NCBI GenBank assembly: GCA_021801825.1
Contig: JAJYXK010000007.1
Span: forward strand, 24,509 to 88,508
Direction of reading: 5' to 3'
Origin: a bacterium
GTDB lineage: Bacteria > Patescibacteriota > Minisyncoccia > UBA6257 > JAGOQP01
Length of the DNA: 64,000 nt
The notes beneath the pieces are model-generated. The model was given only the letters and a program-made list of their open reading frames with translations, was not told where the DNA came from and ran no database searches. Within the stretch, counting starts at the first letter, position 1; each line of letters starts with the position of its first letter. Of this stretch, positions 36,153 to 55,719 are shown in pieces. Position numbers and translations under genes: made by a program.

Positions 36153-36157
36153 AATAT

Positions 36158-36203: not shown

Positions 36204-36245
36204 ATAATCCTCGACATATTCTATATTTACATAAAGCATGAGTAT

Positions 36246-36332
36246 GGAGAGGTGTCAGAGTGGTCTATTGTGCAGCTTTGCTAAAGCTGTGGGGCTTAAC
36301 CGCCCCCGGGAGTTCGAATCTCCCCCTCTCCG
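36246..36332 (+). tRNA. tRNA-Ser (anticodon GCU), long variable arm, G73
   Basis: GGAGAGG acceptor, anticodon arm CAGCT-TTGCTAA-AGCTG, variable arm GGGGC-TTAACC-GCCCC, T-arm GGGAG-TTCGAAT-CTCCC. Confidence 0.85.
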
Positions 36333-36440
36333 CAGTAAGAACTTTTTATCGGATGACCTGAATGCCCGCATATTTCCTTACTTTTTGAAAATCAAAATTT
36401 ATTAAAAAGCAGGCAGGAGGAAGGGATTCGAAATATAATT

Positions 36441-40417: not shown

Positions 40418-40491
40418 GGGCCCTATCGTCTAGCCTGGTCAGGACACAGGATTTTCATTCCTGTAACCCGGGTTCAAATCCCGGTGGGGTC
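40418..40491 (+). tRNA. tRNA-Glu (anticodon UUC)
   Basis: Acceptor GGCCCTA/TGGGGTC (two G-U pairs), D-arm GTCTAGCCTGGTCAGGAC like E. coli tRNA-Glu, anticodon arm CAGGA-TTTTCAT-TCCTG, T-arm CCGGG-TTCAAAT-CCCGG. Confidence 0.75.
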
Positions 40492-40501
40492 ACACCTTTT
40501 T

Positions 40502-40531
40502 AAAATCACTCCTATAGGAGTGATTTTAAAA
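40502..40531 (+). terminator. Hairpin after tRNA-Glu (aaaatcactcc-tata-ggagtgatttt)
   Basis: Perfect 11-bp stem with A/T-rich flanks. Confidence 0.35.
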
Positions 40532-40593
40532 TAGCTATACCACCGGGATTTGATGAGTATTCAAAAAAATGCAACCTGCTTTGCGTTTTTCTG

Positions 40594-40706
40594 AAACCCG
40601 GGCTTTGAAGGAGGAGCGAAGCATGTGCATAAGCACGGCGAAGCGACGGGTGAAAAGAAATCCGCTTGCCTCGCTTCGCAAGTCGAAGCGGGGTGTGGTT
40701 ACCCCG
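40594..40706. repeat. GC-rich hairpin element A of CGAAGCGGG family (contains cctcgcttcg-caagt-cgaagcgggg hairpin and gcgaagcgacgggtgaa)
   Basis: GC-rich island in AT-rich intergenic DNA; shares sub-motifs with 48011..48090, 55200..55275 and 55650..55665. Confidence 0.6.
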
Positions 40707-40788
40707 TAAAAAACAAATCATCACACCTTCCAATTTTAATTTCACCCATTCTGCGATATACTTATAGGAAATATAACACAATATATTT

Positions 40789-41451
40789 ATGCAATTATTT
40801 ACTATAAAAGAAGCGCTCTCATATGGATGGGAAACGCTTAAGAAAAATTTTTGGTTTTTGGTGGGGGTGTTCGCATTCATTATTGTGGTAAGCGGAATAG
40901 TTTCATCTATTTCTGAATATGCCACCAAACATAATATGGATGCGATATCTGCGGTTGTGCAGTTACTTGGATTCTTAATACAACTAATGCTTGGTATTGG
41001 TTCCACACGCATTGCGCTTGATATATATAATGGAGCACCCACTTCTTTCAAAAAGTTATTTGTTTTTGATAAAACATTTTGGCCTTATTTAGGCGCAACA
41101 CTTTTATACATAATTATAGTGACGGTAGGTTTTGTCTTACTTGTCATCCCAGGATTTATATGGATGATAAAGTATCAACTCTATCCATGGTTAGTTATTG
41201 ATAAGGGCATGAGCAGTAAAGAGGCAATAAAAGCAAGTGGAGTTATTACAAAGGGGAGCAGGAACAGACTTCTTCTATTTTGGATAACCAGCATAGGGAT
41301 ATCTTTTGTAGGGATTCTAATAGTGGGAGTGGGACTTTTCCCTGCGGTTGCACTATTATTCATGGCAAATGCGTATATATATAAGAAGCTATCCACAAAA
41401 CTTGATCAGATGGTTCCGTTAGTGGCTTCGGCAGAGGGAACGGCGCAATAA
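40789..41451 (+). CDS. Hypothetical membrane protein (multi-TM)
   Basis: ORF track; 5-6 hydrophobic helices. Confidence 0.5.
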   Translation: MQLFTIKEALSYGWETLKKNFWFLVGVFAFIIVVSGIVSSISEYATKHNMDAISAVVQLLGFLIQLMLGIGSTRIALDIYNGAPTSFKKLFVFDKTFWPYLGATLLYIIIVTVGFVLLVIPGFIWMIKYQLYPWLVIDKGMSSKEAIKASGVITKGSRNRLLLFWITSIGISFVGILIVGVGLFPAVALLFMANAYIYKKLSTKLDQMVPLVASAEGTAQ

Positions 41452-41553
41452 ATACCATAAAAACAAATGCTCTCCACACAAGAGCATTTGCGTATCTAAA
41501 AATTTTTATGTGTGCTATTATGTAAACTCATAAATATAAGTAATCTATTTTTT

Positions 41554-42354
41554 ATGGATCAAAAACAACACGATATCATAAAAGCGGAGCATTCATTTGA
41601 GAAAGTTCAGAGCAAAAATACGCTTATTATTAGCGCGTCAATTATTTTAGGGGCAGTTATTGTAGGGGTGTGTGTACTCTATGCAGGAAGCATATTTAAA
41701 TCCATTGGAGACACCGGAAGTCAAGTTGTAAACAATCCGACCAATAATGCCGCACCGCAGGCGGGAGGTACCGCGACCCCAGAAGAAACGAAACAGATCC
41801 TTTCTGTAAAATCAGACGATTATGTATGGGGAAATCCACAAGCACCGGTAAAATTAGTTTTATTTACTGATCTTGAATGTCCATTCTGTAAGAGATTTGA
41901 CGAAACACTGAACTCCGTTATGAAAACATATGGAAAAGATGGAAAACTTGCAGTGGTGTATAGACATTTCCCGCTTACTAACATTCACAAAAAAGCCCTT
42001 CCTGAGGCTCAAGCGTTAGAGTGCGCGGGTAAATTGGGTGGCAACGAAGCTTTTTGGAAATTTGTATCTCGCGTTTTCTCGGTGACTCCATCAAACGATG
42101 GACTTGATCCAAAAGAATTGCCAAATATCGCTTCATTTATTGGTTTGGATGTAAAAGCATTTACCGCATGTCAGAACAATAATAATTTTTCCGATAAAAT
42201 TCAGAGAGAACAACAAGAAGGAGTTAAAATTGGTGTTCAGGGAACTCCGCACAGCGTGGTGGTGGCTCAAAATGGGAAAACCTTTGTTATCAACGGGGCT
42301 CAAGATGAAACAAGCGTAAAATCTATTATTGATACCGCGTTGCAGGAAAAATAA
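41554..42354 (+). CDS. DsbA-family thiol:disulfide oxidoreductase with N-terminal TM anchor
   Basis: CPFC active-site motif in thioredoxin fold; ORF trimmed to Met at 41554. Confidence 0.65.
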   Translation: MDQKQHDIIKAEHSFEKVQSKNTLIISASIILGAVIVGVCVLYAGSIFKSIGDTGSQVVNNPTNNAAPQAGGTATPEETKQILSVKSDDYVWGNPQAPVKLVLFTDLECPFCKRFDETLNSVMKTYGKDGKLAVVYRHFPLTNIHKKALPEAQALECAGKLGGNEAFWKFVSRVFSVTPSNDGLDPKELPNIASFIGLDVKAFTACQNNNNFSDKIQREQQEGVKIGVQGTPHSVVVAQNGKTFVINGAQDETSVKSIIDTALQEK

Positions 42355-42378
42355 TTTACAAAAGATATTAGTGTAATT

Positions 42379-42903
42379 ATGAATAACACCGTATCCGTGC
42401 TTAAGCGACCGGCATATCTTCTCTGTACTATTGGGGGTATGCTAGTAGGATATAGTGTTATTTCTTTTTCTATCCACGCTTCTCTAATTATTTCTCTCCT
42501 CGCCTCAGCTCATTCTTTTAAGGTTATTCCAGTGGTTCTTCATATTCTTATGTGGGGAACTTATGCGGTAGGTGGGTGGATTACGGTTACTACGAGTGTG
42601 ATTACATCTTTTTTATGGGGAGTGGTTATTGCTCTGGGTATATATTATATGCGTCACGCAAAAACCATTCACGTTATTATGTCGTCAGGAATTAGGGGTG
42701 TTATTGCTTTAGTGGGAGGAGTGTTGAGCGCGGGGTGTTGGGCGTGTGGAGGGGTATTATTAGCCCCTCTTGTTGGCATGATTGCTGGTGGCGTTTCGGT
42801 GACATTACTATATATTGGGGGAACCGTTATGACCTCCATCAGTTTTGGGCTCTTGGCATATTCTATTTATAAATTAGATAGAGCAATTGGACGATTGGGC
42901 TAA
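42379..42903 (+). CDS. Polytopic membrane protein with membrane-embedded CWAC (CxxC) motif; candidate DsbA redox partner (DsbB/VKOR analog)
   Basis: 4-5 TM helices; GCWACGG; directly downstream of dsbA-like gene. Confidence 0.4.
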   Translation: MNNTVSVLKRPAYLLCTIGGMLVGYSVISFSIHASLIISLLASAHSFKVIPVVLHILMWGTYAVGGWITVTTSVITSFLWGVVIALGIYYMRHAKTIHVIMSSGIRGVIALVGGVLSAGCWACGGVLLAPLVGMIAGGVSVTLLYIGGTVMTSISFGLLAYSIYKLDRAIGRLG

Positions 42904-42941
42904 AAATAGGAAAGGGTTGACCCACGGGGCAATTTTGCCAT

Positions 42942-44474
42942 ATGATAGTGGGTACCATTGTTATGATTGATAAAAGTACTGGATATTATCGTTGGATGGA
43001 AATAGTCCCCGCGTTGTTAGTGTGGGGAACTTTTGTGTTAATGATTTTATTGTCATTTCTAGTTCCTGCAGCGGTTGCTATCTTTATTATTCTATTTGAT
43101 GTGTATTGGTTCCTAAAAACGGTATATTTTGCGGTGTATTTACGTAGTAGCTATAAGAAACTACGCGCAAACTTAGCGGTTAATTGGTTAGAAAAACTAA
43201 AAACAGACGAACGCACAAGCTCTCGCTGGAATGATGTACATCACGTAATTCTTCTTCCTATGTATAAAGAGGAATATTCTGTGGTTAGAGAAACATTTGT
43301 CAGATTGTCTCAGTCAAATTATCCAAAAGAGAAATTTTTTGTTGGACTTGGATTTGAAGAACGCGCGGGAATAGAAGTACAAGAGATAGGAAAGAAGATA
43401 CAAGAAGAATTTGGTAATACTTTTGGAGCTCTCGTTATTACCGTGCACCCATCAAATCTTCCTGGAGAAAAACCAGGAAAGAGCTCTCATGAGTCATGGA
43501 TGGCACAAGAGATGAAAAAACAAGTATTGGATCCTCGTCAGATTGTATACACCAACATTATCGCCTCTGTATTTGATGTTGATACGCAAATATTTCCTAA
43601 TTATTTTGGTATTCTTACACATACATTTCTTACCACCGAAAAACCGCTTCGCTCTAGCTATCAACCAGTACCATTTTTCTCCAACAATGTTTTTGAGGTT
43701 CCCGCGCTTTCACGTATTATTGGGTTTTCGGGAACGTTCTGGCATCTTATGCAACAATCAACTCCAGAGAAGTTGGTTACTTTTTCTTCTCACTCTATGC
43801 CATATCAGGCACTTATAGATATTGGATTTTGGCACAAAGATATTGTTTCCGAAGATTCTCGCATATTTTTTCAATGCTTAACACATTATGATGGAGATTG
43901 GCGTACCGTTCCGTTGTTTTACCCCGTCTCCATGGATGCGATCATCGCAAAATCATTCTGGGGAACCATGCTTAATTTATATAAACAACAACGTCGCTGG
44001 GCATGGGGATCTGAAAATATTGCGTATCTTTTCTCTGCTTTTAAAGAAAATAAAAAAATATCACTTCGTCAGAAATTATTCTGGAAGTTTAATATTTTAG
44101 AAGGGTTTCATTCTTGGGCAACAAATTCAATTATGATTTTTGCTTTAGGGTGGCTTCCTATTATTATGGGAGGGCAAGGATTTCGCATTACCTTATTAGC
44201 ATACAATCTTCCAAATATTACACAGTGGATTTTAACAGGGGCGTCATTTGGTATTGTAACCACGGCGGCATTGAGTCTCTTTTTGTTACCTCCGCGTCCC
44301 GAAGGATTCCGCTGGTATCATTATTTTTATTATTTCATTTCATGGTTATTGATGCCTATAACGTTAACGGTATTTGGCGCATTCCCCGCGATTGATGCGC
44401 AAACTCGTTTGGCAATATCGGGGAAATTCAGATTGGATTTTTGGGTAACACCGAAGCATCGCAAGGGAGCATAA
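42942..44474 (+). CDS. Processive family-2 glycosyltransferase (cellulose/chitin-synthase-like) membrane protein
   Basis: QQRRW (QxxRW) motif, D,D,D region, N- and C-terminal TM bundles. Confidence 0.65.
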   Translation: MIVGTIVMIDKSTGYYRWMEIVPALLVWGTFVLMILLSFLVPAAVAIFIILFDVYWFLKTVYFAVYLRSSYKKLRANLAVNWLEKLKTDERTSSRWNDVHHVILLPMYKEEYSVVRETFVRLSQSNYPKEKFFVGLGFEERAGIEVQEIGKKIQEEFGNTFGALVITVHPSNLPGEKPGKSSHESWMAQEMKKQVLDPRQIVYTNIIASVFDVDTQIFPNYFGILTHTFLTTEKPLRSSYQPVPFFSNNVFEVPALSRIIGFSGTFWHLMQQSTPEKLVTFSSHSMPYQALIDIGFWHKDIVSEDSRIFFQCLTHYDGDWRTVPLFYPVSMDAIIAKSFWGTMLNLYKQQRRWAWGSENIAYLFSAFKENKKISLRQKLFWKFNILEGFHSWATNSIMIFALGWLPIIMGGQGFRITLLAYNLPNITQWILTGASFGIVTTAALSLFLLPPRPEGFRWYHYFYYFISWLLMPITLTVFGAFPAIDAQTRLAISGKFRLDFWVTPKHRKGA

Positions 44475-44503
44475 TGATCAATTTTTAACTTCTAATTTTG
44501 GAT

Positions 44504-44558
44504 AACACTCCCATCCTAACATATTGGGATGAGAGTGTTTTATTATATTGCTTTTTTG
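44504..44558 (+). terminator. Long hairpin terminator (aacactcccatcc-N9-gggatgagagtgtt + T-rich tail)
   Basis: 13-bp stem with one mismatch, followed by ttattatattgcttttttg. Confidence 0.5.
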
Positions 44559-44654
44559 TGAAAATGTGGTAGCGTATAAAAATGCGGACGGTACACAAAA
44601 TATATATAACCCCCGCATAAATGAACATTTATAACTAGTTAAGGAGGACTTGCC

Positions 44655-45497
44655 ATGGGCAACCCTACAACAGCAAGACAGCTCGATAAACTTTTTGATT
44701 CGGCGCGTCCACTGTTTGATAACAGTGAAGCCATGCAAAAATTTTTAGGATCTGGTCTTTTCTCTGATCTGGTAAAAAGTTTCGAAAATGGAAATGGAGA
44801 AAATATCTCGAGAAACGAGTTCAGGAAGGTATCAAAACTTCCGTTCTATCAAACCGTGGAAGTTGCAAAAGAGATTTTAGGAGAGCGCCGTGTTCTGTAT
44901 AAAAGGCCATTCTCTCCAGAAAATCCAAAGGGTTTCAATTTTGACCTTATCCCATATTTTAAAGAGACACTCTTATGGGCAAAGGATCAGAATGAAAAAG
45001 AAGATAGAAATATCTGCTTGGTTGAAATCCCCGGCTCAACCGGAAGCACCTTCTCAGAAATACAAGCTGATCTCATCAGGGACAACAAAGATTTTGATTT
45101 TCTGAATAACGATAAAACCAAAAAAGAATGTTCTAATCCCGAGCTCTTTAGTATTTTTAGAGAAGCACATAGGGTTTGGGAAGGATATTATCTTGTTGAT
45201 TTCGGAGAGAAAAAACTTGTACTTTTTTCTGAAGAGAGAAAAAGAAGAGATTATTTATCGGTTCCTTCGGCGTGTTTATTCCTTTATTTCCTTGGAAAAT
45301 TCTTCAAAATTACAGGAAGATATTGGATGTCTCGTTCCGGCGATAGCCTTTCTAAAAGATCTCTTATTTGCATTAGGATGGTAGACTCTACATTGAAACT
45401 GGAGATTTCAGTAGAGGAAAATCATAGTAACGCCGTTTTTATTGGAGACTCCATAGATGGAGAAGATATTCACCTCATCAAACGCGATGAGTACTAA
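44655..45497 (+). CDS. Hypothetical cytoplasmic protein (280 aa), no recognised domain
   Basis: Strong RBS ttaaggagg-N7-ATG; terminator downstream. Confidence 0.5.
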   Translation: MGNPTTARQLDKLFDSARPLFDNSEAMQKFLGSGLFSDLVKSFENGNGENISRNEFRKVSKLPFYQTVEVAKEILGERRVLYKRPFSPENPKGFNFDLIPYFKETLLWAKDQNEKEDRNICLVEIPGSTGSTFSEIQADLIRDNKDFDFLNNDKTKKECSNPELFSIFREAHRVWEGYYLVDFGEKKLVLFSEERKRRDYLSVPSACLFLYFLGKFFKITGRYWMSRSGDSLSKRSLICIRMVDSTLKLEISVEENHSNAVFIGDSIDGEDIHLIKRDEY

Positions 45498-45510
45498 GTG
45501 GATTATTGTG

Positions 45511-45537
45511 CTGCGGCCTATGGCCGCAGTTTTTATA
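45511..45537 (+). terminator. Rho-independent terminator (ctgcggcc-tat-ggccgcag + ttttta)
   Basis: Perfect 8-bp GC stem. Confidence 0.6.
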
Positions 45538-45576
45538 TTCTCAAGAGAGGAAATATGATACAATAGAAAAAATTTT

Positions 45577-47994
45577 ATGAAACCATTTATTAAATTAATT
45601 CGTGAACTAACGATACATGATATTCCGGAGGTCGGTGGTAAAAACGCATCATTGGGAGAAATGTTTAAGCATTTGGAACCAAAGGGTGTTCGTATTCCTG
45701 ATGGATTTGTAGTTACAGCAACTGCCTATAAACATTTTATTGCTGAAGGAAAAGTAAAAGACACTACTTTAAAAGATTTTATAGAGCAAACGTTGAAAGG
45801 ATTGAATACAAAGGACCTGAAACAGCTTCAGCACGTAGGGAAATTGATTCGTGAGGCGATAACTTCAGCTCATATGCCCGAGGATTTAGAAAAAGACATT
45901 CGTTTTGCATATAAACAAATGGAGCGGCAATATAAGAAAAATGTAGATGTCGCGGTGCGTTCTTCGGCAACCGCAGAAGATTTGCCAGGAGCTTCGTTTG
46001 CGGGACAGCAAGAGACATTTCTCAATATTTGTGGGGCTGATATGTTAATGCGCGCGGTCCAAAAATGTATTGCCTCATTATTTACTGATAGAGCGATTTC
46101 TTACCGACACGATAAGGGATTTGACCATACAGACATTGCGCTTTCGGTGGGAGTACAAAAAATGGTCCGTTCTGATTTGGGGGCGTCGGGAATTATGTTT
46201 ACCGTAGATACTGAATCAGGTTTTAAAGATGTGGTGAATATAAACGCAACCTGGGGATTGGGAGAAATGATTGTGCAAGGAGAAGTTATCCCTGATGAGT
46301 ACTTGGTTTTTAAACCGTTTGTTGGAAATAAAAAACTAGTGCCGATTTTGAGCAAGAAGTTGGGAAAGAAAGAGGAAAAAATGGTTTATGCAACAGGTGA
46401 GAAGCCAACAAAAATTGTTTCGGTTGATGAAAAAGACAGAAACACATTTGTGTTGAGTGATAAGGAAATTCTTACCTTGGCGCAATGGGGAGTTTATATT
46501 GAAGAGCACTATACTGCAGTGCATAAGAAATGGACTCCTATGGATATGGAATGGGCAAAAGATGGAGAAACGGGGAAATTATATATGGTACAAGCGCGCC
46601 CCGAGACGGTGCAGGCGCAGAAAGATTTCACTCGCTATGTTGAATATAAACGGGTGGAAGATGGCGCTTCTATGGTGACGGGGGCATCAGTGGGAAGTTC
46701 CATTGTTTCAGGAATGGCTCGAGTAATTTTAGATGTGAAAGACATCTACGAATTTCGAAAGGGAGAAATTTTGGTAACCGATATGACTGATCCCGATTGG
46801 GAGCCGATTATGAAAATTGCTTCGGGAATTGTGACGGATAAAGGAGGGCGCACTTCACACGCGGCAATTATTTCTCGTGAACTTGGAATTCCCTGTGTAG
46901 TAGGCAGTGTGGAGGCAACGAAGAAAATAAAAACGGGAGATGTAATTACCATTGATACTACAGGGAGCGAGGGAGTTATTCTGAAAGGAAATTTGAAATA
47001 TACACGCAAGGAACACAATATTGGAAAACTGAAACAACCAAAGGTAAAAATCATGATGAATATTGCTACGCCCGATACCGCATTTGAAAAATCATTTATC
47101 CCAAATAGCGGAGTGGGGCTTGCGCGGGAAGAATTTATTATTGCCTCTGCTATTGGCATTCACCCGAACCTTTTGGTTGATTTTGATAAACTAAAAAAAC
47201 AGGGTCATGATGAAAAAACGATACAGTTACTCAAAGAGGTAGAGAAGCGAACGCCTGGATATACTGACAAAGCGCAATACTATGTAGATATGCTTGCATA
47301 TGGAATTGCAAAAATAGGCGCGGCGTTTTATCCCAAGCCAGTTATTGTACGCTTCTCTGATTTTAAAACAAATGAATACAGACAATTAGTTGGTGGAGAT
47401 TTATATGAGCCACATGAAGAGAATCCTATGATTGGATGGCGCGGCGCTTCCCGATATTATCACCCCTTATTTACAGACGCGTTTTGGTTGGAATTAATGG
47501 CATTAAAAAAAGTTCGTCAAGAAATGGGACTTACGAATGTACAGGCGATGGTTCCGTTTTGCCGTACACCCGAAGAAGGGAAAAAAGTAAAGTCGCTTAT
47601 CAAAAAAGCGGGATTGTTAAAAGATGGTATGAAAGTTCATGTAATGTGTGAAATCCCCGCAAACATTATTCGCGCGAAAGAATTTTTAGAGATCTTTGAT
47701 GGGATGAGTATCGGATCCAATGATTTGACACAGCTGTTGTTAGGAATTGATCGTGATGGTAATGAACGGATTAGAAGTATTAGTAATGAAACTGATGACG
47801 CGGTAACTCAGACAATTTCTGAAATTATAAAAATATGTCGCAAAGACGGAAAATATATTGGTATTTGCGGACAAGCCCCTTCAGACATTCCGGAGTTTGC
47901 GCGATTTATTGCAAAAGCGGGAATTGAAAGTATTTCATTAAGCCCCGACTCAGTTATAAAAACATTAGTTGATTTTGATAGAATGGGGTTGTAG
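45577..47994 (+). CDS. ppsA: Phosphoenolpyruvate synthase (pyruvate, water dikinase)
   Basis: N-terminal PEP/pyruvate-binding ATP-grasp region, phosphohistidine mobile domain GGRTSHAAIISRELGIPCVVG, C-terminal PEP-utilizing TIM barrel; 805 aa. Confidence 0.8.
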   Translation: MKPFIKLIRELTIHDIPEVGGKNASLGEMFKHLEPKGVRIPDGFVVTATAYKHFIAEGKVKDTTLKDFIEQTLKGLNTKDLKQLQHVGKLIREAITSAHMPEDLEKDIRFAYKQMERQYKKNVDVAVRSSATAEDLPGASFAGQQETFLNICGADMLMRAVQKCIASLFTDRAISYRHDKGFDHTDIALSVGVQKMVRSDLGASGIMFTVDTESGFKDVVNINATWGLGEMIVQGEVIPDEYLVFKPFVGNKKLVPILSKKLGKKEEKMVYATGEKPTKIVSVDEKDRNTFVLSDKEILTLAQWGVYIEEHYTAVHKKWTPMDMEWAKDGETGKLYMVQARPETVQAQKDFTRYVEYKRVEDGASMVTGASVGSSIVSGMARVILDVKDIYEFRKGEILVTDMTDPDWEPIMKIASGIVTDKGGRTSHAAIISRELGIPCVVGSVEATKKIKTGDVITIDTTGSEGVILKGNLKYTRKEHNIGKLKQPKVKIMMNIATPDTAFEKSFIPNSGVGLAREEFIIASAIGIHPNLLVDFDKLKKQGHDEKTIQLLKEVEKRTPGYTDKAQYYVDMLAYGIAKIGAAFYPKPVIVRFSDFKTNEYRQLVGGDLYEPHEENPMIGWRGASRYYHPLFTDAFWLELMALKKVRQEMGLTNVQAMVPFCRTPEEGKKVKSLIKKAGLLKDGMKVHVMCEIPANIIRAKEFLEIFDGMSIGSNDLTQLLLGIDRDGNERIRSISNETDDAVTQTISEIIKICRKDGKYIGICGQAPSDIPEFARFIAKAGIESISLSPDSVIKTLVDFDRMGL

Positions 47995-48010
47995 AAGAAG
48001 TAACTAGTTA

Positions 48011-48090
48011 TGAGGGGGTAGGACTTAGCTCACCTCGCTGAGTCGAAGCGGGCTCGCCTCGCTAAAGCTATAGCGAAGCGGGTGAATGGT
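48011..48090. repeat. GC-rich hairpin element B of CGAAGCGGG family (cctcgctgagtcgaagcgggc ... agcgaagcgggtgaa)
   Basis: Same two sub-motifs as element A in reversed order. Confidence 0.6.
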
Positions 48091-48127
48091 GGTTAGACAG
48101 TAATAATTAGATTTTCTGAAAATAATG

Positions 48128-48153
48128 AAACCCCGGAGGAATCCGGGGCTTTT
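48128..48153. terminator. Terminator hairpin (ccccgga-ggaa-tccgggg + cttttaaac), probably bidirectional
   Basis: 7-bp GC stem, GNRA-like loop. Confidence 0.5.
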
Positions 48154-48186
48154 AAACAGATGAGCAATGATAATAAAGCGGAAAAA

Positions 48187-48603
48187 TTATGGAATAACTT
48201 TTATTTTTCTAGTCATTAACACCCCTAACAAGGATATTATCATCCCCGCAATCAAGCTTGGGTATGTAACGTTATCGCTCCAGTCAGTAGGAATTTTGAA
48301 GAAGATATTGGCTACCACAATACTTGAGGCTATTATAGCTGTCATTCCCATCCCAACCGACAAAATAAAAGATATTGATAGAATCGACGAGTTTTTTTCT
48401 AGAAGCATGTCAGTGATAAATGCTAGGTATAAAAGAATGTTTAGGATTGAGAAGATAGCTAATGAGATAATGTAAGGCTCATCCTTACTTTTGTTTATGG
48501 AAAAATAAACGATGCTGAATATAGAAGGAAATAACAGAAAGAATACGAAAATTCCCATCAGTTTGATTTTCTCCAAGAACGATTTTTTTACTTCCAATTT
48601 CAT
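48187..48603 (-). CDS. Hypothetical membrane protein (4 TM)
   Basis: ORF track; RBS-like ggggga upstream; preferred over overlapping plus-strand ORF 48167..48475. Confidence 0.45.
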   Translation of the reverse strand: MKLEVKKSFLEKIKLMGIFVFFLLFPSIFSIVYFSINKSKDEPYIISLAIFSILNILLYLAFITDMLLEKNSSILSISFILSVGMGMTAIIASSIVVANIFFKIPTDWSDNVTYPSLIAGMIISLLGVLMTRKIKVIP

Positions 48604-48741
48604 GTTTCCCCCATCATCTTTTTTGTTTTTAAGTTAATGTGCTATTTACCTATTTTGAGACCACAAAATTTATGAGCTCAAAAAGGGTGTTCATCCTCAT
48701 CTTTTGTTTTAGAAAAGTGAAGATGAACGGAAATGGGGGAG

Positions 48742-49071
48742 TTAGAAGTTGAATGGCAGCCCTATTAGATTAGGGTGCCTTTTTTCTATAAAAATTTGTA
48801 TGTCTGTGTGGTCTTCTTTGCGGACCGGAGAAATTTTCACCGCTTTCACATTATTTTCTGTGAGGTATTCCTTTGAAGCCTTGAATCCAGGAACGACTAC
48901 AAAAGAATCTCTCCCTTCCTTGACCCCAATTAGAAAATACAATAGGCGTCCTTTATAAGGAACCGCTTTCCGCACGAGAATCGGAATATCGTCGTGAAAA
49001 CTTAATTTCATTAATAATCTTGGGCGCTCAACGAGCAAGAACTCCCTTAATAATTCTTTTCTTTTGGACAT
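48742..49071 (-). CDS. Hypothetical protein (109 aa)
   Basis: ORF track; RBS-like tggggga upstream. Confidence 0.4.
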   Translation of the reverse strand: MSKRKELLREFLLVERPRLLMKLSFHDDIPILVRKAVPYKGRLLYFLIGVKEGRDSFVVVPGFKASKEYLTENNVKAVKISPVRKEDHTDIQIFIEKRHPNLIGLPFNF

Positions 49072-49190
49072 ATGTCCCCCATTTATTATTTAGAAAAACT
49101 TTAATGTGCTAATTAACTGTGGGGTGATTGTATAATTAAAACATATAAATGTCAACTATGCCCAGATAGTAGAAATTCGCATACTTTGTA

Positions 49191-49209
49191 CTAAAAAGGC
49201 GCATAGCGC
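49191..49209 (-). terminator. Weak terminator downstream of gpmI (minus: ggcgc-tat-gcgcc + T5)
   Basis: 5-bp stem only. Confidence 0.3.
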
Positions 49210-49250
49210 CCAGCGAATTTAAAACTTGGTTAGAAATTGAAGGTGGTTAT

Positions 49251-50798
49251 TTACCCGTATAATAGTTGTTTTAGTAAACTTTCCCCACTCATATAGGGAG
49301 GTTTTGATAATCCAAGGAGCTCTAACACCGTAGGAGCTATATCAGTAAGAAGACCAATGGTCATGTGTTCACGTTGTTTTATAGTCATGGCATCTACGGG
49401 GCGGTAAAATCTTTTTCCTATTAAATAGACGGGTACGGGATTTGCATCATGTTTCGTTTCGGGTTCTCCGGTGGTGGGATTGAAAAGTCTCTCAGCATTA
49501 CCATGATCAGAGGTGATGATAAGTGTGGTGTTGTCTTTTTTTAATACTGTGGCTACTACTTTTGCAAGCTCTTCGTCTATTACATGAATTGCTTTTTCGG
49601 TAGCGGCATAATTTCCCGTGTGCGCAATCATGTCGGGATTTGCGTAATTCACCAGAATAAAATCAAATGTCTCTTCTTCAATGGCTTGCAGGAGGCGAGT
49701 AGTAATGGCGGGCGCCTGCATGGTGGGGTCATCATCTTGGCGGGGGAGCATGCGAGAGGGAATAAGAACGCGATATTCATTAGGAAACGGTTTGTCATTT
49801 AATCCATTAAAGAAAAAAGTGACATGGGCATATTTTTGGGTTTCAGCGATACGAAGTTGTGTTCTGCTTTGCTCGGCGAGTACCTTTCCTAAACAACCCT
49901 GAATTTTTTCCGGAGGGAACGCAATGGGAATGGTGAAATCTTCACGGAGGAGTGTCATAGAAGCAAAGTACACATTATTGAATTTCTTTACCGGAAATTG
50001 CGTAAAATAAGGATTTACAAAACTCTCTGCAATCTGTCTCATGCGGTCTTCACGGAAATTGAAAAAGAACACCGCATCATTATCGTGGATTGCATTTTCA
50101 CTAGAACCAATTCCTACGGGTAAAACGAACTCATCATTCAATTTCTTTGCGTAGGTTTGTTCTATGTGTTTTTGAATATCTCCTGATGCAATATATGGTC
50201 CCGTCCCCGTCAATGCCTCATAGGTGCGTTGTGTAAGATCCCAGTGTTTATCGCGATCCATGGCATAATATCGCCCCGAAACACTTCCCATATGATCAAG
50301 AGGAAACTGAGAAAGCGTTTTAAATCCGGCATAGGGATCGCTATCGCGTCCATCGGTGAAGAGATGTAAAACATAGGAAACCTGTTTTTGCTGCGCCATG
50401 GCAATAAGTTCCTTTAGATGTTCCGATGACGCGTGAATATTTGCTTGTCCTACTAGCCCTATTAAATGTATACGAGATTTATTTTGGAGCGCATGGTTAA
50501 ATGCATTGCAAATCGCGTCGTTTTTTTGAAAGGTTCCATCTTGGATTGCGAGACTGATACGAGGATAATGCTGATACATAATACTTCCGATTCCCATGGT
50601 AAGATGTCCTACTTCGCTATTACCCTCTTCTTTCCAGGGGAGTCCAACTGACATACCCGCTGACTGCAATGCGCCTGATGGAAAATTCTGCTTTACGTAT
50701 TCAAATGTTTTTGGTTTTACTTTATAGATGGGATTTGATTGATCATCTTGTCCAATACCCCAACCATCAAGAACCACAAGAACAACCGTATGTTTCAT
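49251..50798 (-). CDS. gpmI: 2,3-bisphosphoglycerate-independent phosphoglycerate mutase
   Basis: MKHTVVLVVLDGWGIG, SDHGNAE; ORF 49251..50819 trimmed to Met8. Confidence 0.85.
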   Translation of the reverse strand: MKHTVVLVVLDGWGIGQDDQSNPIYKVKPKTFEYVKQNFPSGALQSAGMSVGLPWKEEGNSEVGHLTMGIGSIMYQHYPRISLAIQDGTFQKNDAICNAFNHALQNKSRIHLIGLVGQANIHASSEHLKELIAMAQQKQVSYVLHLFTDGRDSDPYAGFKTLSQFPLDHMGSVSGRYYAMDRDKHWDLTQRTYEALTGTGPYIASGDIQKHIEQTYAKKLNDEFVLPVGIGSSENAIHDNDAVFFFNFREDRMRQIAESFVNPYFTQFPVKKFNNVYFASMTLLREDFTIPIAFPPEKIQGCLGKVLAEQSRTQLRIAETQKYAHVTFFFNGLNDKPFPNEYRVLIPSRMLPRQDDDPTMQAPAITTRLLQAIEEETFDFILVNYANPDMIAHTGNYAATEKAIHVIDEELAKVVATVLKKDNTTLIITSDHGNAERLFNPTTGEPETKHDANPVPVYLIGKRFYRPVDAMTIKQREHMTIGLLTDIAPTVLELLGLSKPPYMSGESLLKQLLYG

Positions 50799-51001
50799 AT
50801 ATAGTGAATGTCTGTGCATGCTAAGTATAGCATACCTTGCGGGCAGATTGACTCATATGAGAGGGGAGAGTATCATAGAAACATACCAGCATTACAAACT
50901 AACACATCTTCAGATGAATTCTTGTGTTATTCGGAACCAAATCTTTGAATATATAATGATCACAAGCGGAACCACACAACAGAGGAAGAATCTGGAGTTT
51001 T

Positions 51002-52531
51002 TTGGATATGATTACTACTATTATCAGCTCAATCGCTGCCCTCATAGTGGGTGCGGCGTTCGGATACTTAGTGCGACATCTCGTCGTATCTAAGCAGGCT
51101 CAGTCAATTGAGGAGACCATAAAGAAACAATTAGAAGAAAGCCGCATTAATGCAAACAATGTGGTGCTTGAGGCACAAGAAAAGGCATCGGGTATTTTGG
51201 AGGAAATAAAGAGAGAGGAGCGGGAGCGTAAAGCGCAAGCTGATAAAATTGAGGAGCGCTTGTTAAAACGAGAGGAGTCTTTAGAACAGCACGCGGTTGA
51301 TTTAAGAGAGAAAGAAAAACAGATTCAAAATGATTTGCAAAAATTAACCGAAGCAAAAGAATTTGTAACACAAGCAAAGGAACGCATTGGGCAAGAATTA
51401 CAACGAGTTGCGAACCTCTCTATTGAGGATGCGAAAGCGGCATTGTTTAAAGATGTTGAACAAAAGTATCAGCAAGATTTGGTTGAGTATGTGGCAAAAT
51501 TGATGCAACAACGACGAGAAGAAGTTGAGAAAAAAATCATCGGAATTCTGACAACAGTTATGCAACGATATAGTCGTTCGTCAGCGGCAGAATTTACTAC
51601 CACCAGTGTGAATCTTCCCGATGAAGATTTTAAGGGAAAGATTATTGGAAAAGAGGGAAGAAATATTCGTGCGTTAGAACGATTAACGGGTGTTGAGCTT
51701 ATTGTTGATGAAACTCCTGATACTATCGTGATTTCATCGTTCGATCCGGTACGCCGAGAGGTAGCAAAAACATCTTTAGAAAAATTGATAAAAGATGGGC
51801 GTATTCAACCCGCAAAGATTGAGGAGAAAGTGGAGGAAGCAAAGCAGGAGGTAACGAAAAAAATGCAAGAAGCGGCAGAGGCGGCGGCGTATGAAATTGG
51901 TATTTTTGATTTACCAAAAGAAATTATACAAATCTTGGGACGGCTTCATTTTCGTACCAGCTATGGACAAAATGTATTGCGTCACTCGGTAGAGGTTGCG
52001 CTTTTTGCGGGGATGATTGCGGAAGAATTAGGTTTGAATGTGGATGTGGCAAAACGAGGAGCCCTATTGCATGATATTGGAAAAGCGATTGATCATGAGG
52101 TGCAGGGGAGCCACGTGGAGATCGGAAGAAAAATTCTTAAAAAATATAATGTGGATGAGCGCATTATCCAGGCCATGGAGGCTCACCACGATGAATATCC
52201 CTATGCAACCTCTGAGGCATATGTAGTTGCGGCGGCTGATGCTCTTTCTGCGGCACGCCCTGGAGCCCGTCGTGATACTTTAGAAAATTATCTCAAGCGA
52301 TTACAAGAGTTGGAAAATATTGCGGGGCAGTTTGGGGGAGTAAAACAGGCATATGCAATTTCTGCAGGACGAGAATTGCGTATCTTTGTGACACCTGAAA
52401 AAATTGATGATTTTGGGGCGCTAGAGTTGGCGCGCGAGGTAGCTCGTCGCATTGAATCAGAATTAAAATATCCAGGAGAGATTAAGGTTATTGTGGTGCG
52501 AGAAACACGAGCGGTGGAGTATGCCAAGTAA
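51002..52531 (+). CDS. rny: Ribonuclease Y
   Basis: N-terminal TM, coiled-coil, KH domain (IIGKEGRNIRALERLTGVELIVDETP), HD domain (LLHDIGKA...HH). Confidence 0.85.
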   Translation: MDMITTIISSIAALIVGAAFGYLVRHLVVSKQAQSIEETIKKQLEESRINANNVVLEAQEKASGILEEIKREERERKAQADKIEERLLKREESLEQHAVDLREKEKQIQNDLQKLTEAKEFVTQAKERIGQELQRVANLSIEDAKAALFKDVEQKYQQDLVEYVAKLMQQRREEVEKKIIGILTTVMQRYSRSSAAEFTTTSVNLPDEDFKGKIIGKEGRNIRALERLTGVELIVDETPDTIVISSFDPVRREVAKTSLEKLIKDGRIQPAKIEEKVEEAKQEVTKKMQEAAEAAAYEIGIFDLPKEIIQILGRLHFRTSYGQNVLRHSVEVALFAGMIAEELGLNVDVAKRGALLHDIGKAIDHEVQGSHVEIGRKILKKYNVDERIIQAMEAHHDEYPYATSEAYVVAAADALSAARPGARRDTLENYLKRLQELENIAGQFGGVKQAYAISAGRELRIFVTPEKIDDFGALELAREVARRIESELKYPGEIKVIVVRETRAVEYAK

Positions 52532-52575
52532 TGAGGGGTAAGTTGATAGGGATTAGGGGATAGTTATGAAAATCC

Positions 52576-52603
52576 AAAACCCGCTATATGGCGGGTTTTG
52601 GAT
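52576..52603. terminator. Terminator after rny (aaaacccgc-tatatg-gcgggtttt)
   Basis: 9-bp stem including A/T arms. Confidence 0.55.
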
Positions 52604-52626
52604 TGTAGCTTATTAATACTTAATAT

Positions 52627-52718
52627 CCCGACGTAAAGCTCCGACGTTTCAGTCGGAGAGCCGACTCATTACGTCCTGGCTTCGGGACCCCGACCTCTTT
52701 GTAAAAAGAGCGTCGGGG
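52627..52718. other. GC-rich multi-hairpin element C: outer pairing cccgacg...cgtcggg enclosing hairpins ctccga-N8-tcggag, gtcc-N8-ggac, ctcttt-N6-aaagag
   Basis: Structured 92-nt island 16 nt upstream of dedA ATG; shares ATCCCGACG with typA upstream palindrome. Confidence 0.45.
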
Positions 52719-52733
52719 CTTTATACTATTTCT

Positions 52734-53360
52734 ATGATTTATTCGGTTCTCGCATTTATTGCTAATATTATTATAGTAATCATTAGTAAAACGGGATATC
52801 TCGGTATCGGAATATTAATGGCAATTGATAGTTGTAATATTCCTATTCCATCCGAAGTCACCATGCCATTTGCTGGATTCTTGGCACAAAATGGAACTCT
52901 TTCTCTATGGGTGATTATTCTTGCGGGAACTATAGGAAGCGTTATTGGCTCTATTGTTTCTTATTACATTGCGAATTGGATAATTTCTCACCGAACAAAA
53001 AACAAAGTCCTACATAAAATTTTTTCAGATCATTCTGTCGCTACTGCAGAGCGATGGTTCCAAAAATATGGAAACGCTTCGGTATTTTTCGGGCGCATGG
53101 TCCCCGTGGTGCGTACCTTTATTTCACTTCCGGCAGGGGTCGCGCGAATGAAGCTTTCTTCATTTGTATGGTTTACGGCCGCGGGGTCATTAGTGTGGTC
53201 TTTCATTCTTGCATACGGAGGATATGTACTAGGGGAACAATGGCAACATATTGAAAACTACACACGTCAATTTGAATATATAATATTAGCCGCAGTGATT
53301 GTTATAGGGGCAATTTTTCTTATAAAAAGGAGTAGAATAAAAACAAAAAATTCTGCATAG
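52734..53360 (+). CDS. DedA/SNARE-associated (VTT-domain) family membrane protein
   Basis: GYLGIGILMAIDSCNIPIPSEVTMPFAGF signature region. Confidence 0.7.
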   Translation: MIYSVLAFIANIIIVIISKTGYLGIGILMAIDSCNIPIPSEVTMPFAGFLAQNGTLSLWVIILAGTIGSVIGSIVSYYIANWIISHRTKNKVLHKIFSDHSVATAERWFQKYGNASVFFGRMVPVVRTFISLPAGVARMKLSSFVWFTAAGSLVWSFILAYGGYVLGEQWQHIENYTRQFEYIILAAVIVIGAIFLIKRSRIKTKNSA

Positions 53361-53385
53361 TTTTTTGATGTGATATACTTTTAGT

Positions 53386-54117
53386 ATGAAAAATCCATGT
53401 ATTGTGTGTAATTGGAAAATGAATCCCGCTTCTCAAAAAGAGGCCGCTGCGCTTGCTCGAGAAATAACGCGTGCGGCAAAATCAAAAAAAGGCGAGGTTA
53501 TTATTGCTCCACCAGCAATCTACCTATCGACCGTTAAGAATGAACACACCCATGTTGCATTACAAGATGTGTCGGAATACGCCAAAGGGGCTCACACCGG
53601 ATCAATTTCTGCATCTATGGCAAAGAATATGGGGGCCTCGTATGTTATTGTGGGTCATTCCGAGAGACGGAGAGAACAACACGAAACAAATGAACAGATA
53701 GCACAAAAGATTGAACGCGCGTATGAAGCAAAATTAACTCCCATTATATGTGTGGGAGAATTAAAAAAAGAAACCCCTGAGCGTGCGTGGGGGAAAATAA
53801 AAAAGCAATTAGATGAAATTATCCCATCCCTTAAAAAGGGAAAAGGGGTTATTGCGTATGAACCTGTGTGGGCGATTGGAGGTGATAAAAAAACTGATAG
53901 CGCCTACGCGCAGGCAATGATGTATCGCATTAAATTATATATACGGATGCAGGCGCAACTTATAACGCCAATTCTTTATGGAGGAAGTGTCAATTGTAAA
54001 AACATAGAAGATTTCTTAGAATATAAAGACAGCATAGACGGATTTCTTGTCGGATCCGCTAGTGCGCAAAAAAAAGAAATAACAACATTAATAAAAAAAA
54101 TTTATGGATCTTATTAA
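53386..54117 (+). CDS. tpiA: Triosephosphate isomerase
   Basis: NWKMN, VIVGHSERR, AYEPVWAIG. Confidence 0.85.
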   Translation: MKNPCIVCNWKMNPASQKEAAALAREITRAAKSKKGEVIIAPPAIYLSTVKNEHTHVALQDVSEYAKGAHTGSISASMAKNMGASYVIVGHSERRREQHETNEQIAQKIERAYEAKLTPIICVGELKKETPERAWGKIKKQLDEIIPSLKKGKGVIAYEPVWAIGGDKKTDSAYAQAMMYRIKLYIRMQAQLITPILYGGSVNCKNIEDFLEYKDSIDGFLVGSASAQKKEITTLIKKIYGSY

Positions 54118-54943
54118 AGAAAAGAAAGCTCTCTTAGGAGCATTAACTGGATTGGCAGGAGTCGCCATTGTGGTATTGTTGTACATAATGTTCTGGGGAG
54201 TGTTAGAACCGCAAGAACAGTTTCCGGCGCGTAATATCTCGGTATCAGCGACGGGTAAAGCGGTTGCTAAACCAGATATTGCTGTGACTTCGTTTTCGGT
54301 AGTTTCAGAGGGGACGGACATAAAAGCAATTTCTGATCAGAATAACGAGACGATTGGTAAGGCGGTATCTTTTTTGAAAGAAAAAGGAATTGATGAAAAA
54401 GATATACAAACCGTAGAGTACAATTTATCTCCCGTGTATTCTCAAAAGACATACGCGCCATCAGCAATCTTATCTACTCCGTCGGTAAATATGCGTACGC
54501 AACCAGTTAGTGCTCCTGTTATAGAAACGACTACTGCTCCGACCATTGTAAAATATTCTCTGACGCAGACGGTCCGTGTAAAAATTCGTGATTTTACTAA
54601 AACATCAGAAATTATTGGTGCCCTTGCTCCTATGGGAATCAATAAAGTAAGTCAAATTTCGTTTGGTATTGATGATCCTGAGGTATATAGGGCACAAGCG
54701 CGCGCGGAGGCTATAGAAAAAGCAAAAGCGAAAGCTCAGGTAATGGCACAGCAACTTGGCGTATCTCTTGGTCATTTGGTAAGTATTTCAGAATATGCGC
54801 AGGATAGTGGTTATCAACCAATGATGTCTGCGGTAAAAAGCATGGGGGGATATAGCGAAATAGCGGCTCCGGTGGCCCCCTCTATTGAAGCAGGAAGTCA
54901 AGAGGTTGTGGTAAACGCAAATATCACTTACGAAATTAAATAG
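54104..54943 (+). CDS. SIMPL/DUF541-domain secreted protein
   Basis: N-terminal TM/signal; domain architecture and C-terminal VVVNANITYEI typical of SIMPL family (from memory). Confidence 0.5.
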   Translation: MDLIKEKKALLGALTGLAGVAIVVLLYIMFWGVLEPQEQFPARNISVSATGKAVAKPDIAVTSFSVVSEGTDIKAISDQNNETIGKAVSFLKEKGIDEKDIQTVEYNLSPVYSQKTYAPSAILSTPSVNMRTQPVSAPVIETTTAPTIVKYSLTQTVRVKIRDFTKTSEIIGALAPMGINKVSQISFGIDDPEVYRAQARAEAIEKAKAKAQVMAQQLGVSLGHLVSISEYAQDSGYQPMMSAVKSMGGYSEIAAPVAPSIEAGSQEVVVNANITYEIK

Positions 54944-54955
54944 TTTTGTCATTAT

Positions 54956-55192
54956 ATGAATCTGTCACGCAAAAAGAGACGATGGGTTTCTATTGGAGTC
55001 GGTGTTATTGGATTAGTTACTATTGTGGGATTATCTGATTTGCTCTTTCTTATTCCAAGAGAAGAAACGATCCCAACGCCAACGATTGAGTCTGAGGTGG
55101 TTACCACCACCCCTAATGAGATAAACGTTCCTCTTACTATTCCGACAACCACTACCTCAACCCAAAAAACGGAGAATGAGTTTAAGTTATAG
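54956..55192 (+). CDS. Small membrane-anchored Thr-rich protein
   Basis: ORF track; TM WVSIGVGVIGLVTIVGL. Confidence 0.3.
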   Translation: MNLSRKKRRWVSIGVGVIGLVTIVGLSDLLFLIPREETIPTPTIESEVVTTTPNEINVPLTIPTTTTSTQKTENEFKL

Positions 55193-55199
55193 ATATAAG

Positions 55200-55275
55200 G
55201 TGACCCCGATAGTAGAAGCGAGCGCATTTCATGTATAACCGCTTCGCGGCAAGCTTGCTTCACTACGGGGTTCAA
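55200..55275. repeat. GC-rich hairpin element D (gaccccg...cggggtt outer stem; gaagcgagcgc / ccgcttcgcgg; palindrome gcaagcttgc)
   Basis: Contains CGCTTCG/GAAGCG motif pair of the CGAAGCGGG family. Confidence 0.5.
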
Positions 55276-55301
55276 GTGCGTATGTCTAAAACATACGCAC
55301 T
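55275..55301 (+). other. Perfect 10-bp hairpin agtgcgtatg-N7-catacgcact immediately upstream of promoter
   Basis: Read directly. Confidence 0.5.
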
Positions 55302-55328
55302 TGACTTTTGAAAAAATAGGAGTATAAT
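55301..55328 (+). promoter_or_regulatory. Sigma70-type promoter TTGACT-N16-TATAAT
   Basis: ttgacttttgaaaaaataggagtataat. Confidence 0.5.
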
Positions 55329-55334
55329 GCAAAT

Positions 55335-55425
55335 ATTGAGTGAGTTGATTTTGCCCATATTATTATAGGGGACAAAATTACCTCTTTTTCTCCGCCACCC
55401 AGCAATGGGTGGCGGAGTTTTTATT
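55335..55425 (+). ncRNA. Candidate ~90-nt small RNA delimited by consensus promoter and perfect 11-bp terminator (ctccgccaccc-agcaat-gggtggcggag + T5ATTT)
   Basis: No ORF longer than 15 codons inside. Confidence 0.35.
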
Positions 55426-55480
55426 TGCATGTTGATTAATTTTATGGTATAAAAATTGTAGAACATTTTTGGAGTCAAAC

Positions 55481-55615
55481 ATGAAAACGACTATAAAATA
55501 TAACGAACCAAGATGGGTCAGATTTTTAGGGAACCATCCGCTCTCTCTTCTGATTCCGATTACGGTAATTCCCACTGTTATTTATGTTGTTATAGGGTTT
55601 TCGGCGGCCCTATAG
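55481..55615 (+). CDS. Small hydrophobic peptide (44 aa) with RBS ggag and downstream terminator
   Basis: MKTTIKYNEPRWVRFLGNHPLSLLIPITVIPTVIYVVIGFSAAL*. Confidence 0.35.
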   Translation: MKTTIKYNEPRWVRFLGNHPLSLLIPITVIPTVIYVVIGFSAAL

Positions 55616-55621
55616 CACAGA

Positions 55622-55676
55622 CCCCCTCCTCCCTTGATCCGCGTGTTTCTTGCGGAAGCGGGGAGGCTTTTTATTA
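55622..55676 (+). terminator. GC-rich terminator-like hairpin(s) + T5 (ccgc-N9-gcgg, aagcggggagg motif) = family element E
   Basis: cccctcctcccttgatccgcgtgtttcttgcggaagcggggaggcttttt. Confidence 0.4.
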
Positions 55677-55719
55677 TAGTTGCTATTTATGGTGGGGGAT
55701 TTATACTCATAACATCTGT

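Follow-up and report, generated by a model that had tools for sequence, protein, structure and literature searches.

The stretch of DNA considered here (the window, 64,000 nucleotides of contig JAJYXK010000007.1, assembly GCA_021801825.1) belongs to a Patescibacteria (candidate phyla radiation, CPR) metagenome-assembled genome (MAG), and its intergenic DNA holds four GC-rich islands, called A, B, D and E, whose nature and relationship are treated in this report. The window has a GC content of about 40% and carries a 23S rRNA with insertions, a 5S rRNA and six tRNAs, as found with ARAGORN and Rfam. Its proteins are also present on MAG GCA_027422995.1, and the nearest relatives of its PpsA protein are found in Patescibacteria/Paceibacteria-type MAGs. 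With 8.3 kb of upstream sequence added, about 72 kb of the genome could be read; loci compared with it, from relatives, metagenomes and viral contigs, are labelled with L-numbers (L009, L103 etc.). Coordinates are those of the window, and features lie on the plus strand unless stated otherwise. Element A is located between a tRNA-Glu gene (40419-40493) and a gene for a DUF975-like membrane protein (40789-41451). Element B is found between the ppsA stop codon (47994) and a bidirectional terminator hairpin (48128-48153) that separates ppsA from a convergent open reading frame (ORF). Element D lies 3' of a 78-codon ORF (stop at 55192), and element E follows an ORF of 44-48 codons and precedes the holB promoter. 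A sequence-only reading of this DNA had described the four islands as one family of hairpin elements with a common core. All strings quoted in it were found where it had placed them, and the capacity to form GC hairpins is real, with folding z scores of -7.6 for D, -2.9 for the plus strand of A and -3.7 for the minus strand of B. Strict GC-rich hairpins are rare in the 64 kb: only five were found, of which one is in the 23S rRNA, two are terminators and the others are the hairpins of A and B. As set out below, both the observation and the interpretation given in that reading hold in part.

Islands A and B contain three homologous mini-hairpins, here called H. These are GC-rich palindromes of 24-30 nt of the form CTCRCCTCGCT-loop-CGAAGCGGG, which start with CTC(G/A/T)CC and end with GCGGG. 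H3 (CTTGCCTCGCTTCGCAAGTCGAAGCGGG, 28 nt, 40665-40692) is located in A, whereas B is a tandem pair of H1 (CTCACCTCGCTGAGTCGAAGCGGG, 48029-48052) and H2 (CTCGCCTCGCTAAAGCTATAGCGAAGCGGG, 48053-48082). The stem comprises 10 bp in H3 and 9 bp with one mismatch in H2. In local alignments controlled by shuffling, the similarity of B to the right part of A (aligned region 40663-40712) has a z of 4.7, and that to the ortholog of A in L103 a z of 4.3. The pair in B is flanked on the left by a conserved motif of the ppsA 3' untranslated region (UTR) (GGGGGTAGGACTTAG, 48014-48028) and on the right by ancestral 3'-UTR sequence (TGAATGGTGGTTAGA, 48083-48097). In L009, of which PpsA is 85% identical, and in L107 the site is empty: the motif, there GGGG(C/G)TAGGGTTTAG, runs straight into TG(A/G)AT (TGAAT/TGGAT), and compared with these two loci the flanks in the window are parted by exactly H1 plus H2, 54 extra bases. 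H3 interrupts a copy of a tRNA end. The orthologous site in L103 reads AAATCCCG, then the insert CTCGCCCCGCTTCGCAAATCGAAGCGGG and then GTGGGGTTA, as compared to the continuous AAATCCCGGTGGGGTCA in tRNA-Glu, and a U.G pair in the stem of the window H3 is C-G in L103; the corresponding copies in L009 are not interrupted by H. Another H copy, CTCGCCTCGCTGCGCTACGGCGAAGCGGG, is present in L063, which represents an unrelated CPR genome, and is a precise insert when compared with the homologous unit of L085. L063 has, in addition, a reversed H-like copy, located within the D-loop of a 5' fragment of tRNA-Ala.

Filled and empty H sites thus differ by the insert alone, and target duplication does not exceed 1 nt at any insertion. 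Judged by these alignments, the H hairpins are insertions into pre-existing DNA; H3 entered a copy of the tRNA-Glu 3' end, and H1 and H2 the conserved ppsA 3'-UTR motif. The terminal inverted repeats and fixed-length target-site duplication of a miniature inverted-repeat transposable element (MITE) are not seen in H, which is a single hairpin. No further copies were found in the 8.3 kb upstream of the window, and in viral contigs the H pattern matched only phage repeats of 61-73% GC that are not demonstrably related.

Apart from H3, A consists of one copy, in decay, of a structured unit of about 125 nt; in relatives this unit is found directly 3' of tRNA-Glu, tRNA-Leu or tRNA-Gly. The unit is laid out in the order tRNA, terminator hairpin, an inverted copy of the T-loop and T-stem (INV), a core with two hairpins (P2 and P3), and a direct repeat of the tRNA 3' end (DR). 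In the window the anchor is the tRNA-Glu(UUC) gene mentioned above, identified by both ARAGORN and Rfam. It is followed by hairpin X (40500-40529), a perfect AT-rich, terminator-like palindrome that is kept in L103 and has equivalents 3' of tRNAs elsewhere. Next come INV (CCACCGGGATTTGA, 40540-40553), which is the reverse complement of the tRNA-Glu T-loop, T-stem and acceptor bases TCAAATCCCGGTGG, the P2 hairpin of what we call a type-1 unit (40557-40597), and the irregular P3 hairpin (40601-40657). The DR, a degenerate copy of the tRNA-Glu 3' end, consists of a left part (AAATCC-G, 40658-40664) and a right part (GTGTGGTTA, from GTGGGGTCA; 40693-40701); it is one base short and split by H3. 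At other loci both repeats are matched to the tRNA that they adjoin. INV equivalents specific to the tRNA occur at Leu (GGGACTCGAA), Gly, Gln, Pro and other loci, and the DR reads GAGTCCCACTCCGAGCACA at Leu and AAATCCCGGTGGGG at Glu. Three independent Logan contigs (L005, L007, L008) start at 40502, and an insertion hotspot was considered here; it is simpler to assume an interruption of assembly inside the palindrome 40500-40529, and the shared start is probably a de Bruijn assembly break, not biology.

Comparison with relatives showed that the unit comes and goes at individual tRNA genes. Region 40545-40663 matches L009 twice, once at the syntenic tRNA-Glu site and once after tRNA-Leu. The tRNA-Leu site of the window (39960) is empty, with the PspC gene following directly. 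A 22-mer scan of metagenomes yielded one true further copy, located after tRNA-Gly(CCC) and bearing a 29-nt direct repeat that extends 11 nt beyond the tRNA. The core in the window is 87% identical to the L009 Leu copy, 85% to the Gly copy (L089) and 74% to the syntenic Glu copy of L009. L009 also harbors a tandem array of four units, each ending in AAATCCCGGTGG. In L103, an 87%-identical relative, different unit types occupy the same place, the core being exchanged between this locus and the window within flanks that are more than 90% identical. Among the 90 tRNAs of 35 loci scanned, 12 have 13 nt or more of their 3' end repeated directly further downstream, and all 12 are in CPR-type loci. 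The distance from the tRNA is 77-240 nt, and up to 537 nt in arrays; 11 of the 13 loci listed also have INV. The start of the DR varies and its length ranges from 13 to ~48 nt, so there is no fixed-length target duplication. Cores differ between lineages, while types 1 and 3 have GCGA(C/T)G..TGA(A/G)A beside the repeat in common. In viral contigs the type-1 core had no matches, and a type-3 15-mer gave chance matches in coding DNA only. The literature search revealed no description of the tRNA-linked architecture. That B might be a degenerate right end of such a unit (GGGTGAA..GGTGG) was considered and rejected, since TGAATGGTGG, which L009 and L107 both possess, belongs to the ancestral flank.

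Related arrangements were noticed at other tRNA genes. Downstream of tRNA-Pro in L049 and tRNA-Glu in L085, the tRNA end, terminator hairpin and inverted copy are duplicated once more without a core, which indicates that the repeated module varies between loci. Short copies of tRNA 5' ends, mirroring the 3' architecture, are found 38-82 nt upstream of tRNA-Val (L029), tRNA-Gly (L030) and tRNA-Ala (L063). The tRNA-Ile gene of L028 is followed, after 53 nt, by a 40-nt copy of its own 3' half, with no obvious core.

A structure alignment of seven type-1/2 copies, from which mini-inserts had been removed, folds as a three-way junction of P1, formed by INV as the 5' strand and DR, with P2 and P3. 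Paired cells amount to 91%, whereas controls with slid partners have 30-54%; changes on both sides are seen in 15 pairs, as compared to 0-5 in the controls, and none of 500 shuffles reaches the values for paired cells and double changes. Compensatory changes support the consensus fold of P2. In P3 the two GCGAAGC words face each other and the conserved stem is capped by a variable tetraloop, AUAA in the window and otherwise GCAA, GUAA or GAAA. Of 16 units, 13 fold with lower energy on the tRNA-sense strand than on the other. A covariance model of the A-type unit (R1) matched the window at 40542-40673 with 125 bits. In 1.36 Mb it recovered only these copies, and neither B, D nor E. Matches for the unit in covariance model and nhmmer searches have E-values down to 1e-41. 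With regard to known RNA families, Rfam gave nothing at gathering score across the window and left A, B, D and E without a match at E-values up to 10; on eight unit-bearing loci it reported only tRNA and RNase P.

Such features could be expected if the units, and possibly also H hairpins inside transcripts, were functional RNAs instead of selfish inserts. The unit would then encode a non-coding RNA with a closing helix and a 3' tail that copies the T-arm/acceptor strand of the neighbouring tRNA, and it could serve as a decoy, as a processing signal or to guide an enzyme acting on this tRNA or its gene. The compensatory changes in P2 and P3, the variable tetraloop on a conserved stem, the better folding of the sense strand and the DR-adjacent sequence common to types 1 and 3 of different CPR lineages are in agreement with this, as is the wide occurrence of the architecture in the phylum. 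However, the unit is present or absent at orthologous tRNAs of close relatives and accompanies only ~13% of tRNAs, its cores differ greatly between lineages, and the window copy is degenerate, interrupted and one in which a consensus promoter was not found. Stems are, moreover, also preserved by palindromic DNA elements. We therefore regard a functional RNA as a rather unlikely explanation.

The 28-codon ORF that starts in P3 had already been judged probably fortuitous in the sequence-only reading, and the comparison agrees. Its Shine-Dalgarno-like GGAGG and ATG lie within P3, and codon 3 is ATA, GCA, GTA or GAA among four copies, i.e. it coincides with the loop positions of the hairpin. The encoded C-terminus changes with the adjoining tRNA end, and the ATG is lost in unit 4 of L009. 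A small protein gene was rejected because codon 3 varies at positions 1 and 2 without conservation of the synonymous type. Two L009 units carry in P3 a third mini-palindrome, CATGCCTGCGCATGCAGG (3670-3690 and 4860-4880), inserted at AAG|GAG and absent from the other copies.

When tyrosine integrases insert an element at a tRNA gene, they classically leave a second copy of its 3' segment, with the T-loop as starting point and in some cases an extension into the flank. The units carry duplications of this kind, their tandem arrays resemble accretion at one att site, and a unit with its hairpin has about the size of a minimal attP. They might accordingly be scars of integrase elements, the DR representing attR and the hairpin, INV and core representing P' and P arms fused by internal deletion, or else attL-attR mini-elements mobilised in trans, like cis-mobilizable elements (CIMEs). 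We consider this improbable. No kb-scale integrated element and no integrase was found between tRNA and repeat among the 90 tRNAs, where the inserts are gene-free and 77-240 nt long. Furthermore, a single core that is 85-88% identical is joined to three tRNA ends, which is unexpected for an attP-bearing element; the DR varies in start and length, and INV is specific to the tRNA. Terminal inverted repeats of the casposon type were looked for by eye; L089 provided one suggestive case, for which the other copies had no parallel. As in tyrosine-integrase integration at tRNAs and in the long target duplications of casposons and CRISPR repeats, the unit is tied to the tRNA 3' end, has a direct repeat that covers the gene from the T-loop to its end and forms arrays that share the repeat. 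Unlike those systems, it consists of 100-200 nt without genes, has one core joined to several tRNA ends, has a repeat of variable length and possesses an extra tRNA-specific inverted copy, which none of them produces.

The order of scaffold followed by 13-29 nt identical to the 3' part of the adjacent tRNA also recalls the omega-RNAs of TnpB and IscB, in which a scaffold precedes a guide derived from the flank, and the bridge RNA of IS110. This is a resemblance only: no TnpB, IscB or IS110 gene is located near the unit, the upstream tRNA is intact, and INV pairs with what would be the guide. According to a 2025 preprint, which deals only with group I introns at position 35/36, tRNA genes of Patescibacteria are often targeted by such introns; the unit architecture is not described there.

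The relationship between the four islands can now be considered. The core proposed to unite them (CGAAGCGGG/CGCTTCG) stands for A and B alone: CGAAGCGGG has 3 matches in the window against 0.20 expected, all three within A and B, and none of 100 shuffles reaches this number. For GCGAAGCG there are 5 matches against 0.87 expected. The shorter cores that had tied in D and E occur at chance frequency, CGAAGCG being found 9 times against 4.4 expected (7 of 100 shuffles reach 9) and GCGAAGC 6 times against 4.6. The GCGAAGC words in the left of A, moreover, are not a family core and belong to the larger tRNA-linked element. D and E display no likeness to A, B or any related unit in shuffle-controlled local alignment (z below 2.5), and R1 and a second covariance model built from D (R2) each match their own kind only. 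Membership of D or E in the A/B family was rejected on the basis of these alignments and both covariance models. From the 9-mer enrichment and alignment scores it follows that A and B share more than expected by chance, and D and E only short GC-rich words. A single REP/MITE-like family, or a set of shared binding sites, comprising all four islands (REP, repetitive extragenic palindrome) has in its favor that each has GAAGCG-type words and can form GC hairpins. In view of the 7-mer counts, alignments and models, and of the unrelated terminators that replace E in relatives, we hold it to be very improbable. The REP/MITE comparison retains its value for the three inserted hairpins, one in A and two in B, which recur in another CPR genome. 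Chance could also be invoked, with unrelated terminator-like GC-rich hairpins sharing words, since 6-8-mers are easily common to short GC-rich stems and E indeed is just a terminator. This is scarcely credible given the 9-mer count, the exactness of the insertions with respect to relatives, the recurrence of H in L063 and L103, and the E-values found for the unit. The islands are, in our judgement rather probably, a stack of unrelated small palindromic elements and not one family.

D (55202-55273) is a long hairpin of 72 nt that R2 scores at 104 bits, and it was previously taken as a member of the same family as A and B. It is almost invariant at the same locus in L110/L111 and L112, where the SIMPL protein is 74% and 67% identical, respectively. 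R2 detected a diverged second copy in L112 (49.8 bits, E-value 1.7e-9) with compensatory changes in the stem. This D-like hairpin forms the right end of a 201-nt in-frame insertion (67 aa; L112 3905-4108) in holB that is absent in L110 and the window. The second copy together with the conservation indicates that D represents a separate small family, and D may be functional at its locus. Two further assignments were rejected: a small ORF in D (MYNRF...), of which the ATG is missing in L112, and a promoter TTGACTTTT..TATAAT after the D-like copy of L112, which is holB coding sequence (LDFYNSSGII).

E (55625-55675), likewise included in the family earlier, is by its sequence an ordinary intrinsic terminator, with a CCTCC..GGGGAGG stem and a T-run, located 3' of the small ORF 55481-55615 and upstream of the holB promoter (55680-55707). 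A terminator scan recognised the stem-loop 55646-55665 plus GCTTTTTATT as a GC-rich stem followed by a T-run. Relatives have unrelated hairpins with a T-run at this site, followed by the conserved holB promoter.

As judged from the aligned loci, H hairpins and units have been gained or lost between close relatives, are nested in each other, and recur across genomes and tRNAs. The best reading of these data is that of layered, non-autonomous palindromic insertion elements, similar to REP sequences, small dispersed repeats (SDR) and Rickettsia palindromic elements (RPE), by a mechanism that we infer. H was probably moved as non-autonomous hairpin DNA by a trans-acting enzyme with its gene at another place, comparable to the action of RAYT proteins on REP/REPIN. 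The unit would be a mobile non-coding element which inserts at tRNA 3' ends and duplicates its target, with INV pairing with DR to close the three-way junction; its copies would later decay and collect nested mini-hairpins. The tRNA-linked unit is possibly a new kind of element.

The closest analogues among known elements are REP/REPIN-RAYT, SDR, RPE and the tRNA-targeted integrative elements treated above. The cyanobacterial SDR of Elhai et al. 2008 are reportedly mobile palindromic repeats of ~21-27 nt that are nested in other repeats and structured RNA genes and extend local hairpins. H is a similar small nested palindrome but differs in phylum and sequence, the likeness being one of description only. 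In the REP/REPIN-RAYT system, which depends on IS200/IS605-like Y1 transposases, the repeats are also short, GC-rich, imperfect extragenic palindromes that form hairpins in single-stranded DNA or RNA, cluster, nest in one another and insert without conspicuous target duplication (PMC3116915, in which SDR are also named). H differs in that it is 24-30 nt long, occurs as singlets or in direct tandem instead of as inverted doublets, and resides in a CPR genome of ~1 Mb with no RAYT or Y1 gene in the ~72 kb around it. RPE occupy intergenic sites but also occur as in-frame inserts in genes for proteins (PMC1779305). The insertion in L112 holB that carries the D-like copy is likewise in frame, whereas RPE measure 100-150 bp and are restricted to Rickettsiales, and D has 72 nt with only two diverged copies or loci seen.

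Several observations weigh against layered palindromic insertion elements. No mobilising enzyme was found: across the ~72 kb of genome no transposase or integrase is annotated, the genes called include none of the RAYT/Y1 transposase Pfam family, and there is no candidate enzyme in it, with just an 81-aa GIY-YIG protein nearby. There are three H copies at two sites in this part of the genome. No standard mechanism, be it transposition, integrase action or intron insertion, accounts for the tRNA-specific INV; we can only speculate that it originated by template switching within the hairpin or that P1 has a targeting role. The strong conservation of D at one locus suggests function over selfish spread. 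The type-1/2 alignment comprises only seven sequences from four genomes, and in degenerate unit copies A.C mismatches are about as frequent as G.U, so that the evidence for structure at the RNA level is suggestive only; selection at that level is suggested. Finally, the hairpins of B pair better on the minus strand and those of A on the plus strand, which argues against one shared RNA role and fits largely neutral inserts at the DNA level.

With these reservations we put forward, tentatively and with less than even confidence, that Patescibacteria possess an undescribed class of non-coding elements of ~100-200 nt that home to tRNA 3' ends, each 'programmed' for its tRNA by INV on one side and DR on the other, which together close a structured core, and of which the cores are colonised by mobile palindromes of 20-30 nt. 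If true, this would imply target-templated insertion, or else an RNA acting as a mimic of the T-arm/acceptor strand of tRNA or as a guide to it, unlike known transposon, integrase and intron mechanisms; should the tRNA-matched helix reflect targeting or templating, it would represent a novel means by which DNA or RNA finds its way to tRNA genes. CPR/Patescibacteria genomes are small (~1 Mb) and thought to be poor in mobile DNA. Layered tiny palindromic inserts would change the reading of their intergenic DNA, 3' UTRs and insertion-bearing genes, and so would a structured element that follows particular tRNA genes, roughly one in every eight. These elements are also likely to cause assembly breaks and erroneous calls of small ORFs and tRNA fragments.

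Apart from H, a 20-nt palindrome, CCTGCCTGCCGGYAGGCAGG, which would be one of these mobile palindromes, was encountered in several CPR genomes, inserted precisely at T|G sites; the same site is filled in L112 and empty in L108. It is found in the window at 35859, 36174 and, as a reverse variant, 2216, and further in L009 (4650-4830), L103, L112 (~2252) and the viral loci L137-L183. In viral-contig DNA there are 56 copies in 47 stretches of 33-70% GC, unchanged and often several per contig. Loops of tRNAs also harbor copies: L167 has one in the variable loop of a tRNA-Met, and L178 one in the D-loop of a tRNA-like sequence. The variant at 2216-2235 lies within ORF 1736-2386, which encodes a Lamin-tail-domain protein, downstream of the domain, and is possibly an insertion in a coding region. 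No paper containing the sequence of this palindrome was found in a literature search. The other two sites in the window belong to region 35842-36333, where the gene for the GIY-YIG domain protein (81 aa, 35907-36152; Pfam E-value 1.8e-14) is placed between two identical 47-nt copies of a tRNA-Ser 5' part, each with the palindrome CCTGCCTGCCGGTAGGCAGG inserted in its D-loop. This cassette is located directly upstream of an intact tRNA-Ser gene (36246-36333).

In the neighborhood of D, a terminator hairpin (55274-55309) follows the element directly; its stem covaries among relatives and its 3' end overlaps the -35 box of the next promoter. Region 55301-55422 comprises a near-perfect promoter (TTGACT-16-TATAAT, 11/12) and, after it, a sequence of ~88 nt that is almost identical in L110 and L112. 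The latter ends in a strong terminator (55390-55417) with a T-run, contains ACCUCUUUUUCUCC, which resembles the 16S rRNA 3' end, and has no match in Rfam; on its sequence features it looks like a conserved small RNA gene. In region 48029-48706, besides B, the minus strand carries a membrane-like ORF of 138 codons (48187-48603) with no counterpart at this position in L009, which has 43 nt there. The 23S rRNA gene at 2797-6164, which has no 16S rRNA gene upstream within the window, measures 3368 nt as compared to 2925 nt for the model, indicating insertions that are typical of CPR rRNAs.

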